Of a DNA stretch of 64,000 bases, positions 54,568-60,594 are shown one piece after another. A model generated the notes under the pieces. It was not told where the DNA came from. It saw nothing but the letters and a program-made list of their open reading frames with translations, and did no database searches. Position 1 is the stretch's first letter. Each line of letters opens with the position of its first letter. A program made the position numbers and the translations under genes. Where the stretch lies: contig CAZQJU010000005.1 of NCBI GenBank assembly GCA_964593185.1, positions 2,180 through 66,179 on the forward strand, in the 5' to 3' direction. Origin of the DNA: an uncultured Roseivirgaceae bacterium. Its GTDB lineage: Bacteria; Bacteroidota; Bacteroidia; Cytophagales; Cyclobacteriaceae.

Positions 54568-54683
54568 TAATCGTCTTTTTAAGATTATTCATTCAAAATT
54601 AACCCATCCAACAAAATAAAAATCAGCTATCTCAACTAAATCTAACATTGAGGAACCGATATTCTGGTGTTAAATTGCCATCG

Positions 54684-55364
54684 ATGCTAGACAGGTATAC
54701 CATTACACTTCAGCCTGATGAACTCGCGCTTGTTTTGGGAGTAGAAATACCTGAAGCATATCACATCCAATACAATGCAGCACCAAGTCATAATTTACCG
54801 GTAATTGTTAACAGGTCCAGGGACAGATTAAGTTTCCAGAAATGGGGGTTAATGTCAAATTGGACTAATAATAAGGCCATGAGTCCAAAATTTTTCAATC
54901 TGCCAATCGACTCTGTGCTCAGCAAATCATCATACAAAAAAAAGCTGCAAAACCATCGTTGCGTCATCCCAATGGATGGGTTCTACATCTGGAAGAAAGT
55001 GGCGAAAAAGCAACAGATACCACATTATTTTTTCTATCCGGACAAACGAGTTTTCTGTGTTGCGGGTCTATGGGAAGAGAACGAAGATGACAATTCTTTC
55101 ATCATGATCACCTGCCAGGCCAATGAATCGGTTCGTGAATTTCAAGAGGACATGCCCTTAATCATGGATGTGACCTCCACCAGAAGATGGCTTGAAACAG
55201 AAGACATGTCGGAATTGGAGGCCTTACTTACTCGAGAGACCGTGGACAATTTAAAATCACATACGGTAAGTCCAAGAATAATGGATATTGACCTCAATGA
55301 TGTTTCATTAATTAAACCGACGCCCGCTTCGGACCAGCATGGTAATTACACGCTGTTTTCATGA
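54684..55364 (+). CDS. SRAP/HMCES (YedK) family protein, catalytic residues substituted
   Basis: Scaffold motifs 'YNAAPS', 'KWGL', 'RCVIPMDGFY.W', 'AGLWE', 'IT..AN', 'MPLI', 'VS..I'; N-terminus is MLDRY instead of MCGRY. Confidence 0.85.
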   Translation: MLDRYTITLQPDELALVLGVEIPEAYHIQYNAAPSHNLPVIVNRSRDRLSFQKWGLMSNWTNNKAMSPKFFNLPIDSVLSKSSYKKKLQNHRCVIPMDGFYIWKKVAKKQQIPHYFFYPDKRVFCVAGLWEENEDDNSFIMITCQANESVREFQEDMPLIMDVTSTRRWLETEDMSELEALLTRETVDNLKSHTVSPRIMDIDLNDVSLIKPTPASDQHGNYTLFS

Positions 55365-56440
55365 TGAAGAAGATTTTCGTTATATCACTCCTCTGTTCTG
55401 CATGCTACTTGAGCGAAGAAATTCCTCCTGATCAACAGATTTGGGAGTATGACCTGCCGAAAAATCAACGACTGGATCAAGAGCTCTTATTGAACATAAA
55501 CAATCGAATTCTGATCCAAGATGAGGCGTATGGCACCGTCGAAGGGCTAACGATCGTAAAGAATAACCGACTGGTTTTCGAAAACTATTATTCCGGAGAA
55601 CTTAGTAGATCCACCACTAAGAGTATCGGAAAATTAGGGCTATCCATTACGCTTGCAGCCCTCGGAGTAGCGATTGACCAGAGATTCATCTCGGTTGAAG
55701 ATAGCATCCATACCTACCTCCCGGAATACAGTTCCATTTTTCAAGCAGACCCTACGAAAAGAAATATCAAAGTAAAAGATGTGCTCACGCACAGAACGGG
55801 TTTGGCTTGGAATGAGATCAGGTTTACGGACAACGATTACGAGATCATGAAATCAGAGGACGACTGGTTGAGATACTTCCTAACCAAGACACTTTTTGGC
55901 GTTGGAATCTACAACCGGAATACTGCCAATGGTATCCTGATTGCAAGAATAATTCAAAATGCTACGGGAAGGGATTTCAACGATTATGTTCAAGAAGAGC
56001 TTTTTGCTCCGCTTGCCATCGATCACCCGCCTCTGGAACAAGATGCCAGTGGAAACTACAATGGTGGGGATGGCTATCAACTTTCGATGCTGGATTTTAC
56101 CAAAATCTCCTATTTATTTCTCCAAGAAGGGTTCTGGGAGGGTCGCACACTCATTAACTCCAATCTTGTAAAAGATGCCCTCAGCAGACAGCATCAATTT
56201 TCAACTTCATTCTTTAGAAACACAACGGGCTATTTCTGGTCGTTTATGGACTCAAATGCACAAAATTCTTCCGGCTTAGACTTGAGAGATGTAACCTATT
56301 TTGTAGGTGAGACAGGTCAATCGATTTACCTCGTTCCAGAAGAAAATATGATCATCACATTTCATAGTAGCAACTTCTTTAGTCCGACCTCACAGTCGAT
56401 CAACCTTTTCTTTGACATAACCAACTCAATCTCTCAATAA
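55361..56440 (+). CDS. Beta-lactamase-fold (serine hydrolase-like) lipoprotein, active site degenerate
   Basis: Lipobox-like CSAC; 'IVKNNRLVFENY', 'LGVAID', 'VLTHRTGL', 'GETGQSIYLVP'; SxxK and the catalytic Tyr are not in register. Confidence 0.8.
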   Translation: MMKKIFVISLLCSACYLSEEIPPDQQIWEYDLPKNQRLDQELLLNINNRILIQDEAYGTVEGLTIVKNNRLVFENYYSGELSRSTTKSIGKLGLSITLAALGVAIDQRFISVEDSIHTYLPEYSSIFQADPTKRNIKVKDVLTHRTGLAWNEIRFTDNDYEIMKSEDDWLRYFLTKTLFGVGIYNRNTANGILIARIIQNATGRDFNDYVQEELFAPLAIDHPPLEQDASGNYNGGDGYQLSMLDFTKISYLFLQEGFWEGRTLINSNLVKDALSRQHQFSTSFFRNTTGYFWSFMDSNAQNSSGLDLRDVTYFVGETGQSIYLVPEENMIITFHSSNFFSPTSQSINLFFDITNSISQ

Positions 56441-57010
56441 ATGTCGCAGGATTCTGATCTCATACTTTTCGAAAAAGTAAAAGGTGGTGACCTACCGTCT
56501 TATGAGGTTATATTCAAAAAGTACTACAAAGAACTACATCGCTTTGCATTTACCTATGTGAGAGATCCGTCCATCTCCGAAGAAATGGCACAGGAGGTTT
56601 TTTTGTATATCTGGGAGAAACGCAGAAAGATTGAAATCCAAACCACCTTAAAAACCTATTTATATTCCGCGGTCAAGAACAAGTGCCTCAACTACATCAA
56701 ACTTGAATTGCCCAAACAACAATCCATGGCGGATATTAGTGAAGTCATGCTGAGCGTAAACAATCCACGAAAAGACGAAGGTGAAAACGATCAGTTAAAA
56801 CGATACATTCAGAAGGCCATTGACGCTTTGCCCAAGAAATGTAGGCGAATATTCATCCTGAGCAGAAATGCCGGGATGACGTACGAAGAAATCGCTGAAG
56901 AGCTGGATCTCTCAAAAAAAACGGTGGAAAACCAAATGGGAATTGCGCTTAAAAAACTTAGAGAATCCCTTGAAGAAGTTTATTTCAGATATAAAGAAAC
57001 GATGAATTGA
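56441..57010 (+). CDS. ECF RNA polymerase sigma-70 factor (Bacteroidota expansion type)
   Basis: 'EEMAQEVFLYIWEKR', 'YLYSAVKNKCLNY', 'LPKKCRRIFILSR..GMTYEEIA...TVENQM..ALKKLR'. Confidence 0.95.
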   Translation: MSQDSDLILFEKVKGGDLPSYEVIFKKYYKELHRFAFTYVRDPSISEEMAQEVFLYIWEKRRKIEIQTTLKTYLYSAVKNKCLNYIKLELPKQQSMADISEVMLSVNNPRKDEGENDQLKRYIQKAIDALPKKCRRIFILSRNAGMTYEEIAEELDLSKKTVENQMGIALKKLRESLEEVYFRYKETMN

Positions 57011-57025
57011 AAAAAACTGTGAAAT

Positions 57026-57056
57026 TTTTAGGGGTACAACCTGTTGTTGTTGACAT
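57026..57056 (+). promoter_or_regulatory. Putative ECF-sigma promoter upstream of the FecR gene
   Basis: TTTTTAGGGGTA-N14-TGAC. It resembles the GGGT...TGTC-type element I recall between Bacteroidota ECF and FecR genes; not verified. Confidence 0.4.
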
Positions 57057-57065
57057 GCTAGTGAA

Positions 57066-57959
57066 ATGAGCGACGAACTGAAGCGATATAACCACCTCAA
57101 GTATGAAGAAAAAGATACGGCATCTGAGCAAGATGGTTTCGTAGATTTTCTTTTCCAGCATTCAGACATCAATTGTCCGGAGGTCAATACGGATAAAGCC
57201 TGGGATCAGCTGGCTCAGCGTATGGCAACCGATAAATCCAAAAAGCAAGCCGTCTGGCTCAAGATTGCAGCCAGCATCGCGATCATTGCGACCACAGCAT
57301 TCTCCGTTTATTTCTTCAACGTAGATCCAGACCAGATTCAGGTTGCGTCCGGAGCCGAGAAAGTACTGGTTACATTCCCGGATGGTTCCACCGGATTCCT
57401 AAATGCTGCATCTGAATTTTCTTATCCTGAAAAATTCGGTTTAAGCCGTGACGTTGAATTTTCCGGTGAGGCTTATTTCGATATCAAAAAAAGTAAGAAA
57501 CCTTTCGTTATCAATGCAAATGGAGTTGATGTGAAAGTACTGGGAACAGCCTTTAATCTGGTAACATCCGAAAATGAAGTGCATCTCTACGTGGATAGAG
57601 GTTTAGTTGCATTTGAAAAGGACGGAGAGGAGACGCCTGTAGAGGCAGGGAAGCAAGCCGTATTTGACAAAGTGACCAATACGGTGAGCATCAAAGATGT
57701 TCCAGACGCCAACATCATGAGTTGGAGAAACGGCACCTTCAAATTCGAGGATACTCCTTTTGGCGAGGTGCTCAATGAGTTGAGTGGCTACTACGAAGTA
57801 GAATTTAAGCTTGCCAATAAAAACCTTAAGTCTTGTCGGGTATCAGCATCAATCAATGGGCGATCATTGGAAGAGGTTTTGCTGCTGCTTGAATCCATTT
57901 TGGATGTAAAAACCAAACTAAAAGACAACACCGTTAAAATTTCAGGAAAAGGCTGTTAA
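57066..57959 (+). CDS. FecR family anti-sigma factor
   Basis: Single TM, 'FPDGSTGFLN', 'GEAYFDI', 'VKVLGTAFN', 'SWRNG', C-terminal DUF4974-like domain. Confidence 0.93.
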   Translation: MSDELKRYNHLKYEEKDTASEQDGFVDFLFQHSDINCPEVNTDKAWDQLAQRMATDKSKKQAVWLKIAASIAIIATTAFSVYFFNVDPDQIQVASGAEKVLVTFPDGSTGFLNAASEFSYPEKFGLSRDVEFSGEAYFDIKKSKKPFVINANGVDVKVLGTAFNLVTSENEVHLYVDRGLVAFEKDGEETPVEAGKQAVFDKVTNTVSIKDVPDANIMSWRNGTFKFEDTPFGEVLNELSGYYEVEFKLANKNLKSCRVSASINGRSLEEVLLLLESILDVKTKLKDNTVKISGKGC

Positions 57960-57990
57960 TAGTCCGTCAGCTTAATACTTTATTTGTAGC

Positions 57991-60594
57991 GTGGGTGGCA
58001 CGCGAACTAAAGTACTTACATTTTTATTCTTTTCCCTCTGTGGATTTCTGGTTTCTTATGCGCAGACTTCAAGGGACTATCAGATAGGATTTTCCGGAAG
58101 TTTCCCACTCCTGCAAGTATTGGATTCCGTCCAAAAAGACGTTAAGCTCGCCTTCAGTCGAGATAGAATCCCAAATTACACCATCCAATGTACTGAAGGT
58201 CAGTCGCTGAAGGACATGCTTGATGAGTTGGCCGCAGCAAAAATCTTGACATTCAACATACAAAATGAACAGATAATCCTGGGACCCTACACGCCAAGGT
58301 CATACACAATCAACGGCGTGTTGAAGGACATGGAAACGGGTGAGCACATTATTGGGGCTGCAGTGCAAATTACAGGGGGCAAGTCCGGAACCACCACGAA
58401 TGGATATGGATACTTTTCCATTACGCTCTTTGAATCAGACTATGAAGTTGTGGTTTCGCATGTGGGGTACTCCACGTATCGGACAGACGTACAATTAGAT
58501 AGAAATGTATACCTGAAGTTGGCCTTGGCTTCCTCGGTGACTAAGCTGGACGAAGTAGAGATTAATGCACAAGCCAGTAACGACTTCGTGACCGAAGGCA
58601 TTCCGTCCATCAATAAAATCTACATTAACGAAACTGCCGGGCAAGTACCCTACCTCTTTGGTGAAGTGGACGTAATTCAAAATGCACTATTGCAGCCGGG
58701 CATTAAAGTTATTGGCGAGGACGCAAGTGGGTTTCACGTTAGAGGAGGTGCAGTAGATCAGAATCTCACGCTCCTCGATGAGGCCACGATATACAACCCC
58801 AATCATTTCTTCGGGCTAATCTCTGTGTTCAACCCCGAAGCGGTAAATGACATTAGGATCATGAAAGGATACTCCCCCCCCTCTTACGGTGGAAGGGCTT
58901 CCTCCGTTATCGAAGTACGGCAGAAGGAAGGCAATAACCAAAAGGCAAGCTATTCAGGCGGAATAGGTATTCTCTCCGCAAGAGGGTTAGCCGAAGGTCC
59001 CATAAAGAAAGGAAAGAGCTCCTATTTGATTAGCGGACGCCAAAGTTTGCTAAATCTGTCAATCTCAGATTTTGGCAGTCGGTCCGTCTTGAGGAGTAGG
59101 AATCGATTTCAAGATTTGAACATCAAATTGAACACTCGTCCTAATACATCCAATCAGTTTTATCTGTCAGGATATTATGGAAACGACCGAAACAGTGTAG
59201 GCCTTAATTCGATTCGAAACTGGGGGAATCGAATTGCAAATTTTAGATGGAGTCACCTATACAGCCCTCAGCTCTTCTCAAACATCGCGCTATTCGTATC
59301 AGAATTCAATTATCGGGTTGAAAATGACGAAGAACCGGGCGCCTTCATTGGAAGATCCAGGATAAGAGATATCGGCCTAAAGGCTGATTTTGCCTACACC
59401 TTTGAAACCTCCAATGAAATTACTTTTGGTCTGCACAGCACCTATCACAATCTCCTACCAGGGTCCAGAGAGCCTTTTGATCCCAATGCAAGCAGTACGA
59501 ACATCATAGAGTTGGAAAGGGAAAGAGGTTTGGAGTCTGCCGTGTATCTAGGTCACAGCTTTGAGGTAGGAAAGGTGAACGTAAATTATGGTTTCAGGTA
59601 CAGTACCTTACACAACTTTGGACCGGATGAGGTTTTCCGTTATCGAAATGATATTCCCTCAGATACAGCAATTACTGACACGATCACGTTTGCAAACGGA
59701 GAACTCATAAATTCCTTCAGCACATTCGAGCCCAGACTTGCAATCAACTGGAAAATCAATAAAAAGTCTTCCATTAAAGCGGCATTTTCTCGGAATGCGC
59801 AGTACATCCACTTGATCTCTAATACGGTTTCGCCAGCTCCTACAGACATCTGGAAACTGACCGACGACTACATCCCTCCTTTGGTTTCAGATCAGTATTC
59901 CTTAGGACTCTACAAGAATTTCAAGGATGATCAGTGGCAATTTTCTTCGGAAATCTATTACAAGGATATCACCAATAATATTCAGTACAGAAACGGAGCT
60001 GACCTCGTGTTTAACGAAAACATTGAAACCGAATTGATTATAGGCAATGCCAGAGCATATGGGTGGGAAATTTATTTGGGCAAGCAACGAGGTAAACTCC
60101 AAGGATGGCTTAGCTATACCCTCTCCCGTGCTGAAAGTAGGATTATTGAAAATGACCAAGACCTCTTTATACCGGAGAACTTTGACAAGACTCATGACTT
60201 CTCAACATCCTGGAACCTGGATATATCGGATCGTTTAAGCGCTTCTACAAACTTCATCTTCAATACCGGCATTCCTGTGACTTTGCCTACGGATAAATAC
60301 ATTTTCGAAGACAATCTGGTGCCGGGCTTCTCCACACGAAACAATGAAAGAATACCCAACTATCATCGCCTGGACCTTTCCATGAGATTAAAAGGAAGAG
60401 CTACAACCAAGCGTGGGACCAAGCGCAAAAATCAAGACTACTGGATACTGACAATCTACAACGTGTATGCGAGAAAAAATGCTTACTCCTATTTCTTCAG
60501 AGAATCTGAAATCAATCCTGGAATTGGCGAAATCGTTCAATACTCAATTTTTGGAACGGTCATCCCTGCCCTAACGTACAACTTTAAATTCTAA
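57991..60594 (+). CDS. TonB-dependent receptor with N-terminal signalling-like extension
   Basis: Signal peptide, ~70-aa N-terminal domain, CarboxypepD_reg-like domain, plug 'VRGGAVDQNLTLLD', 'YHRLDLS', ends YNFKF. Confidence 0.92.
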   Translation: MGGTRTKVLTFLFFSLCGFLVSYAQTSRDYQIGFSGSFPLLQVLDSVQKDVKLAFSRDRIPNYTIQCTEGQSLKDMLDELAAAKILTFNIQNEQIILGPYTPRSYTINGVLKDMETGEHIIGAAVQITGGKSGTTTNGYGYFSITLFESDYEVVVSHVGYSTYRTDVQLDRNVYLKLALASSVTKLDEVEINAQASNDFVTEGIPSINKIYINETAGQVPYLFGEVDVIQNALLQPGIKVIGEDASGFHVRGGAVDQNLTLLDEATIYNPNHFFGLISVFNPEAVNDIRIMKGYSPPSYGGRASSVIEVRQKEGNNQKASYSGGIGILSARGLAEGPIKKGKSSYLISGRQSLLNLSISDFGSRSVLRSRNRFQDLNIKLNTRPNTSNQFYLSGYYGNDRNSVGLNSIRNWGNRIANFRWSHLYSPQLFSNIALFVSEFNYRVENDEEPGAFIGRSRIRDIGLKADFAYTFETSNEITFGLHSTYHNLLPGSREPFDPNASSTNIIELERERGLESAVYLGHSFEVGKVNVNYGFRYSTLHNFGPDEVFRYRNDIPSDTAITDTITFANGELINSFSTFEPRLAINWKINKKSSIKAAFSRNAQYIHLISNTVSPAPTDIWKLTDDYIPPLVSDQYSLGLYKNFKDDQWQFSSEIYYKDITNNIQYRNGADLVFNENIETELIIGNARAYGWEIYLGKQRGKLQGWLSYTLSRAESRIIENDQDLFIPENFDKTHDFSTSWNLDISDRLSASTNFIFNTGIPVTLPTDKYIFEDNLVPGFSTRNNERIPNYHRLDLSMRLKGRATTKRGTKRKNQDYWILTIYNVYARKNAYSYFFRESEINPGIGEIVQYSIFGTVIPALTYNFKF

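Follow-up and report, generated by a model that had tools for sequence, protein, structure and literature searches.

The window analysed here, a single stretch of 64,000 nucleotides, carries at positions 54684–55364 of the forward strand (stop codon included) the coding sequence of a SRAP-fold protein, P0001, from which the catalytic residues of the family are absent. The initial annotation had described this open reading frame as intact and full length, and the listed frame indeed runs from ATG to TGA, encodes 226 amino acids and covers the whole SRAP profile. Comparison with the Pfam SRAP HMM and with the YedK structure, both suggested there as checks, gave a full-length match: residues 1–200 align with positions 1–212 of the 214 in PF02586 at 153.4 bits (E 8.2e-45, cut-off 27.1), and an AF2 model built from a 60-sequence alignment (pLDDT 92.1, pTM 0.88) matches YedK 6nua_A in Foldseek with an E-value of 1e-17 and a TM of 0.79. 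Over YedK, HMCES and BT_1218, the corresponding values range from 1e-17 to 3e-14 and from 0.74 to 0.79; the YedK–DNA complexes superpose on the model, and the same three proteins are matched by sequence among the solved SRAP structures when searched with phmmer. By fold and by homology, P0001 is a member of the SRAP domain superfamily.

A start at the upstream TTG (54648) was considered and rejected. It would add 12 residues, none of them a cysteine, as had been pointed out before, and these are not conserved as a coding extension; such a start is unlikely because more than 100 orthologs begin with M[LVIY]DRY and because the TTG sits within a promoter-like block. This block, conserved in an alignment of 22 Ekhidna upstream regions, spans 54648–54677 (+) and consists of the TTG (54648–54650), 20 nucleotides and TTAAATTG (54670–54677), after which the ATG follows; it is a candidate promoter of the Bacteroidota −33/−7 type. 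At its 3′-end, the SRAP-like gene overlaps by 4 nucleotides (ATGA) with a gene at 55361–56440 (+) encoding a lipoprotein-like protein of beta-lactamase fold (PF00144, 61 bits). Such a gene follows the ortholog in 19 of 22 Ekhidna loci, with identities of 37–61%, and does not lie beside the orthologs of other genera. Missing from three of the 22 loci, fast-diverging and confined in this position to the genus, it was discarded as an obligate operon partner. Further downstream, positions 56441–60594 (+) hold an ECF sigma gene (Sigma70_r2/r4 by Pfam), a FecR-like open reading frame and a large open reading frame read from its translation alone as a TonB-dependent receptor; this region resembles the usual trans-envelope signalling cassette of Bacteroidota, and nothing evident connects it with the SRAP-like gene.

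The residues on which SRAP chemistry depends are known from YedK, where Cys2 is the nucleophile, Glu105 the general acid/base and His160 the residue protonating O4′ (PMC9436759); in the founding description of the family, Cys2 was called "absolutely conserved" (PMC3765255). When the E. coli protein (NC_000913, L033:4822–5487) is aligned with P0001, its C2-G3-R4, N75-A76-R77, E105-W106 and H160-D161-R162 correspond to L-D-R, N-L-P, I-W and Q-E-D. At the N-terminus (54684–54698, +), M-L-D-R-Y replaces the canonical M-C-G-R-[FY], with Leu2 at the position of the nucleophile. The F-N-L-P motif (54894–54905, +) keeps, as Asn72, the equivalent of Asn75, which holds the N-terminus, and has Pro74 in place of the phosphate anchor Arg77. 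In G-F-Y-I-W (54978–54992, +), Ile102 occupies the position of Glu105, and in F-Q-E-D-M-P (55140–55157, +), Gln154 and Asp156 stand for His160 and Arg162, the latter exchange reversing the charge. Alignments with HMCES and BT_1218 from phmmer are in agreement, and all five substitutions are exactly those that the initial annotation had read from the sequence. That they recur in about 105 homologs with 53–100% identity is far beyond chance. The scaffold motifs, namely Asn75, W-G, R-C, G-F-x-x-W and M-P, are retained. With Cys2, Glu105, His160, Arg77 and Arg162 absent, a thiazolidine cross-link is impossible for P0001, and covalent capture of abasic sites is excluded as far as the sequence can show. 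Four of the five sequence features of a functional SRAP protein are lacking, and P0001 is therefore a SRAP variant outside the enzyme class.

A Cys2-bearing paralog, which the initial annotation had proposed to look for, exists in the same genome (L002:1387–2154, −; contig C96). This second SRAP protein of 255 amino acids starts with MCYD, ends with QGGLF and has C-N-R-D-H-R as its key residues, as checked in this genome. It falls into a divergent MC[YF] subgroup together with L031 and L032. Its aspartate stands at the position of Glu105, and since the E105D exchange affects YedK only modestly (PMC9436759), the paralog is probably active. Judged by Pfam score and length, paralog-like genes occur in about 20 of 41 Ekhidna genomes, and several closed genomes, such as G007, G016, G506 and G516, contain the dead copy alone. 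The dead gene is thus core and the live paralog accessory, so that compensation by the paralog for the lost function is only partly tenable as an explanation.

The conservation of the gene within the genus bears on whether it is maintained. A Pfam search recovered the ortholog in 39 of the 41 Ekhidna genomes sampled, among them closed genomes without any other SRAP gene, and the two misses are both fragmented assemblies. All of the about 105 homologs, which are named Ekhidna in their source and share 53–100% identity, start with M[LVIY]DRY and show the same losses. Pairwise Nei-Gojobori estimates of dN/dS, with dS saturated in most pairs, lie between 0.016 and 0.066 for those seven in which dS stays below 2; relative to the P0001 gene itself, dS is saturated and dN is 0.17–0.34, the lower value belonging to the nearest relative. 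Gene order is kept in Ekhidna, with a divergent PDH E2 gene followed by the SRAP-like gene, the beta-lactamase-fold gene, the ECF sigma gene and FecR, and within the genus the SRAP-like protein is about as conserved (60–77% identity) as PDH E2, the downstream gene being far less so (37–61%). The suspected M[LI]DRY-type clade therefore exists in the broader form M[LVIY]DRY and is under purifying selection. Since the functional residues are missing and the gene is both under purifying selection and phylogenetically retained, it is very probably a maintained non-cross-linking pseudoenzyme; the proposal of a repurposed protein rather than one in decay is supported by conservation, low dN/dS, synteny and a confident fold.

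How this state arose can be followed in related genomes. In an exhaustive profile-free search, 62 cluster representatives were found at an E-value of 1e-30 or better; among 144 of the best matches, aligned with YedK, 76 are strictly C-N-R-E-H-R and 59 lack Glu and His, most of the latter lacking Cys2 as well. Orthologs of the P0001 gene are recognizable by a C-terminal tail, discussed below. Across 401 genomes sampled from the whole phylum, a full-length match with the tail was present in all 12 members of the GTDB family to which the present genome belongs and, outside this family, in just one genome, from a different family in the same order. Within the family, 59 of 71 genomes sampled (70 genera) have a tail-bearing gene. 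Sixty-eight such genes were tabulated, all with the tail: 20 are fully canonical (C-G-R-N-R/K-E-H-R), 8 retain only Cys2, and 40 are dead, with none of the triad. The tail clade is monophyletic relative to other SRAP proteins (99% SH-aLRT in a quick IQ-TREE run). On an alignment without the tail, parsimony requires the canonical state to have been left about three times, the cases including L137 and L117/L120, and the well-supported branches alone force two such events; since only midpoint rooting was applied to the trees (quick IQ-TREE and FastTree), the losses are minimum estimates in both order and number. Catalysis has thus decayed repeatedly, at least two to three times and by degrees, while the tail, borne by canonical, Cys-only and dead proteins alike, stayed unchanged. 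The claim that only the functional residues had been lost selectively thus stands as regards the residues; the loss as a single step does not, P0001 being the end of a graded and repeated series across genera. The tail-bearing L137 (G487:C7:301200–302130), nested in the canonical clade, has Ala at the Glu105 position as its sole catalytic change and keeps Cys2, His160 and both arginines, apparently marking the first step of the decay series. Several tail-bearing genes, canonical and dead alike, have the PDH-E2 neighbourhood in common, which supports positional orthology. Five other genera have an alpha/beta-hydrolase gene (PF00561/PF12146, about 310 amino acids) directly upstream of the tailed SRAP gene, on the same strand (L034:512–1462, L036:517–1470, L035:710–1429, L043:569–1495, L045:754–1467 and L044:2192–2896), adjoining both canonical and dead copies; the closest Ekhidna homologs of this hydrolase (about 40% identity) are located elsewhere, on contigs C7 and C1. 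The arrangement may point to a partner within an operon or simply to local synteny.

The tail itself, D-Q-H-G-N-Y-T-L-F-S in P0001 (55332–55361, +), is a near-invariant linear motif and a candidate docking peptide for the beta clamp. Throughout the degenerate group, the C-terminus reads P-x-D-Q-x-G-N-[YL]-T-L-F-x with hardly any deviation; among 60 diverse members there is no variation at Q218, L224 and F225 and at least 90% conservation at D217, G220 and N221, and 103 of 105 Ekhidna homologs contain DQxGNYTLF. In the AF2 model, pLDDT over the last two blocks of ten residues falls to 72 and then to 49, and the tail is predicted to be disordered. Within the domain, members of the degenerate group have retained the structural core (W54-G55, R92-C93, G99, W103, P113, P158 and W169). 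No further protein of the genome has the full Q.GN..LF tail, the sole partial match being a radical SAM protein of the PA0069 family that ends in GNYQLF.

Set against the clamp-motif consensus QL[SD]LF or QxxLF, the last five residues, NYTLF, keep Leu-Phe and have Asn in place of Gln; Asn does not belong to the published consensus at position 1, the conserved D-Q-x-G goes beyond a plain pentapeptide clamp motif, and the Gln of the tail precedes Phe by seven residues as opposed to four. Indirect support for the equivalence of NYTLF with this motif comes from SRAP relatives and from the PA0069 orthologs. An ending of the form Qxx[LMF][FLW] is found in 29 of 75 canonical SRAP representatives as against 0.19 expected from its internal frequency; three dead SRAP proteins (P0174, P0206 and P0223) have QASLF, QTSLF and QAKLF at the position of NYTLF, and of the close canonical relatives, the pair L046/L047 ends in NNTLF and L048 in QGKLF. 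The PA0069-family radical SAM protein (L063, G000:C47:18168–19217, +; NF033668, 487 bits) is unrelated to SRAP and ends in GGNYQLF. Among its orthologs from 25 further genera of the family, most terminate in GGN[YL]xLF, and four terminate in GQLSLF, GQLKLF, NQLQLF and GQLTLF. Because these endings alternate at a homologous position, N[YL]xLF can be exchanged there for the textbook QLxLF, and for the same reason the PA0069 protein, described as DNA-repair photolyase-like, is probably clamp-tethered too. C-termini of the classical clamp-motif type also occur in other repair proteins of the genome: QLTIGF in Pol IV, QLELFPE in RNase HII (L066, G000:C10:28027–28629, +), QGSLF in a DUF763 protein (L069, G000:C43:18034–19236, −), GGQLDMF in a second DUF763 protein, a C-terminal fragment of 146 amino acids (L070), and QPTLFG in a photolyase-FAD-domain protein (L065, G000:C41:7166–7969, +). 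Human HMCES possesses a C-terminal PIP box for PCNA. Together, these observations make it rather probable that the tail of P0001 binds the beta sliding clamp. The idea of a protein-interaction module, put forward in the initial annotation, thereby gains a candidate partner, the invariant tail being common to P0001 and to the canonical orthologs of sister genera.

On balance, P0001 would then be a pseudoenzyme that forms no cross-links and serves as a SRAP scaffold, tethered by its tail to the sliding clamp. Since the last five residues of the tail look like a family variant of QLxLF, clamp tethering appears the most likely function. The SRAP scaffold is folded and selectively kept but cannot capture abasic sites by a Cys2 thiazolidine cross-link, and the flexible DQxGN[YL]TLF terminus would dock the protein on the replication clamp, its final pentapeptide serving as an Asn-for-Gln variant of the beta-sliding-clamp motif. 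Once on the clamp, P0001 might play a non-covalent role as a scaffold, a cleft competitor or a residual DNA reader; recruitment of partners through a remodelled groove would be a further option. The genomic context speaks against the clamp, as there is no replication partner in an operon and the neighbours are PDH E2, the beta-lactamase-fold gene and the ECF sigma gene.

A somewhat unlikely alternative is that P0001 acts as a pseudoenzyme adaptor with a tail that either engages another partner, such as a family-specific protein of repair or replication, or folds back on the SRAP domain as a regulatory plug. This would account for the conserved D-Q-x-G, which goes past any known clamp pentapeptide, and for the restriction of the GNYxLF ending to one other protein of the genome, the PA0069 radical SAM protein. 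However, the orthologs of that very protein swap the ending for the textbook QLSLF, QLKLF or QLTLF, and related SRAP proteins carry a classical QxSLF at the aligned position, while the plug is disfavoured by the AF2 model, which leaves the tail undocked with a pLDDT below 50.

Alternatively, the groove residues and the basic beta-thumb could still bind DNA, P0001 being a non-covalent shield of ssDNA or lesions that has given up the covalent step. In favour of this possibility, several DNA-contact positions are still conserved, namely R4, P40, W106, T149, the K/R equivalent to YedK position 84 and a lysine-rich beta-thumb (K104/K108/K109), so that DNA binding may not be wholly gone; moreover, several dead lineages of other genera keep R77 and/or R162. 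In the P0001 lineage, however, both anchor arginines are gone, one replaced by Pro and the other by Asp with reversed charge, the equivalent of W68 is Thr, and the protein has a net charge of −5 and a pI of 5.7. In YedK, the lesion phosphate is anchored by Arg77, Thr149 and Arg162, and ssDNA binding is abolished by each of the single exchanges R77A, R162A, T149A, W67A and W68A (PMC6821365). Binding of ssDNA in the YedK mode is accordingly improbable on these residues, and a shielding function seems unlikely.

That P0001 is still an enzyme, with a new chemistry based on other residues or on the N-terminal amine, is quite improbable. Catalytic residues have migrated in some pseudoenzymes, and in YedK the C2A variant still uses its N-terminal amine for Schiff-base formation and lyase activity (PMC9436759), but for this remaining activity Glu105 is required, P0001 has Ile at this position, and Met1 is probably retained before Leu2, judging from the specificity of methionine aminopeptidase (MetAP). 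Across the dead clade, the positions of the former active site vary and are occupied mainly by hydrophobic residues: L, V, A, I or S at E105; Q, S, T, G or E at H160; and R, D, E, N or T at R162. The dead members therefore have no new fixed active site, and a search of their domain for clade-specific invariant polar residues found none, so that no new invariant Cys, His, Ser, Asp or Glu is available. Neutral decay towards a pseudogene, which the loss of every catalytic residue and the branches of dead members, longer than those of canonical orthologs in FastTree, might suggest, is refuted by a frame intact in all genomes examined, a dN/dS of about 0.03–0.06, synteny, a distribution over 39 of 41 genomes of the genus, a conservation comparable to that of the neighbouring PDH E2 and far above that of the downstream gene, and an invariant tail, and can be dismissed as highly improbable.

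Mechanistic work on SRAP proteins centres on the covalent cross-link, and here a widespread and maintained SRAP lineage does without that chemistry. One bacterial family holds active, half-decayed and dead orthologs together, with a clamp-type docking peptide as the constant element. The dead tailed lineage suggests a second, non-chemical job for the SRAP family. A more tentative proposal is that SRAP proteins have a second function at the replication clamp, independent of their chemistry, that by itself sufficed in one bacterial family to keep the gene under strong selection after cross-linking and even the canonical grip on ssDNA had been lost several times. If this is true, part of the biology ascribed to cross-linking by YedK and HMCES could be non-catalytic, for example the restraint of translesion synthesis or the management of clamp traffic, and the GTDB family in question would offer natural separation-of-function alleles. 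Two questions thereby become testable: whether the sliding clamp tethers bacterial SRAP proteins in the way that PCNA tethers HMCES, and whether a non-catalytic role at the fork exists for SRAP proteins. In the library searched, no paper describing a SRAP pseudoenzyme or a clamp motif on a SRAP protein was found, nor one on either question.

Among known systems, P0001 is closest in fold to the SRAP domain of YedK and HMCES (PF02586; PDB 6nua, 6kbz and 6oe7), with which it shares size and a full-length HMM match. In contrast to both, it lacks Cys2, Glu105, His160, Arg77 and Arg162. HMCES has a PCNA-binding PIP box and P0001 likewise bears a C-terminal peptide of clamp type, whereas YedK itself has no clamp-like tail. 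The canonical tailed orthologs of sister genera (for example L036, L038–L040, L106, L109 and L115) belong to the same orthogroup as P0001 and share with it the DQxGNYTLF tail, a length of about 232 amino acids and the PDH-E2 neighbourhood; they retain C-G-R-N-R/K-E-H-R and are presumably active, whereas P0001 is the fully degenerate end of the series. The bacterial clamp motif QL[SD]LF or QLxLxL, as in Pol IV, RNase HII and MutS, resembles the tail in its location at the extreme C-terminus, its disordered linker and its Leu-Phe end, and differs from it in having Gln where P0001 has Asn at position 1 and in lacking the four additional conserved residues D-Q-x-G. The logic proposed for P0001 is that of ImuB, a dead Y-family polymerase that has kept its beta-clamp motif and acts as a clamp-bound adaptor (PMC10421592), although ImuB has an unrelated fold and known partners, ImuA′ and DnaE2.
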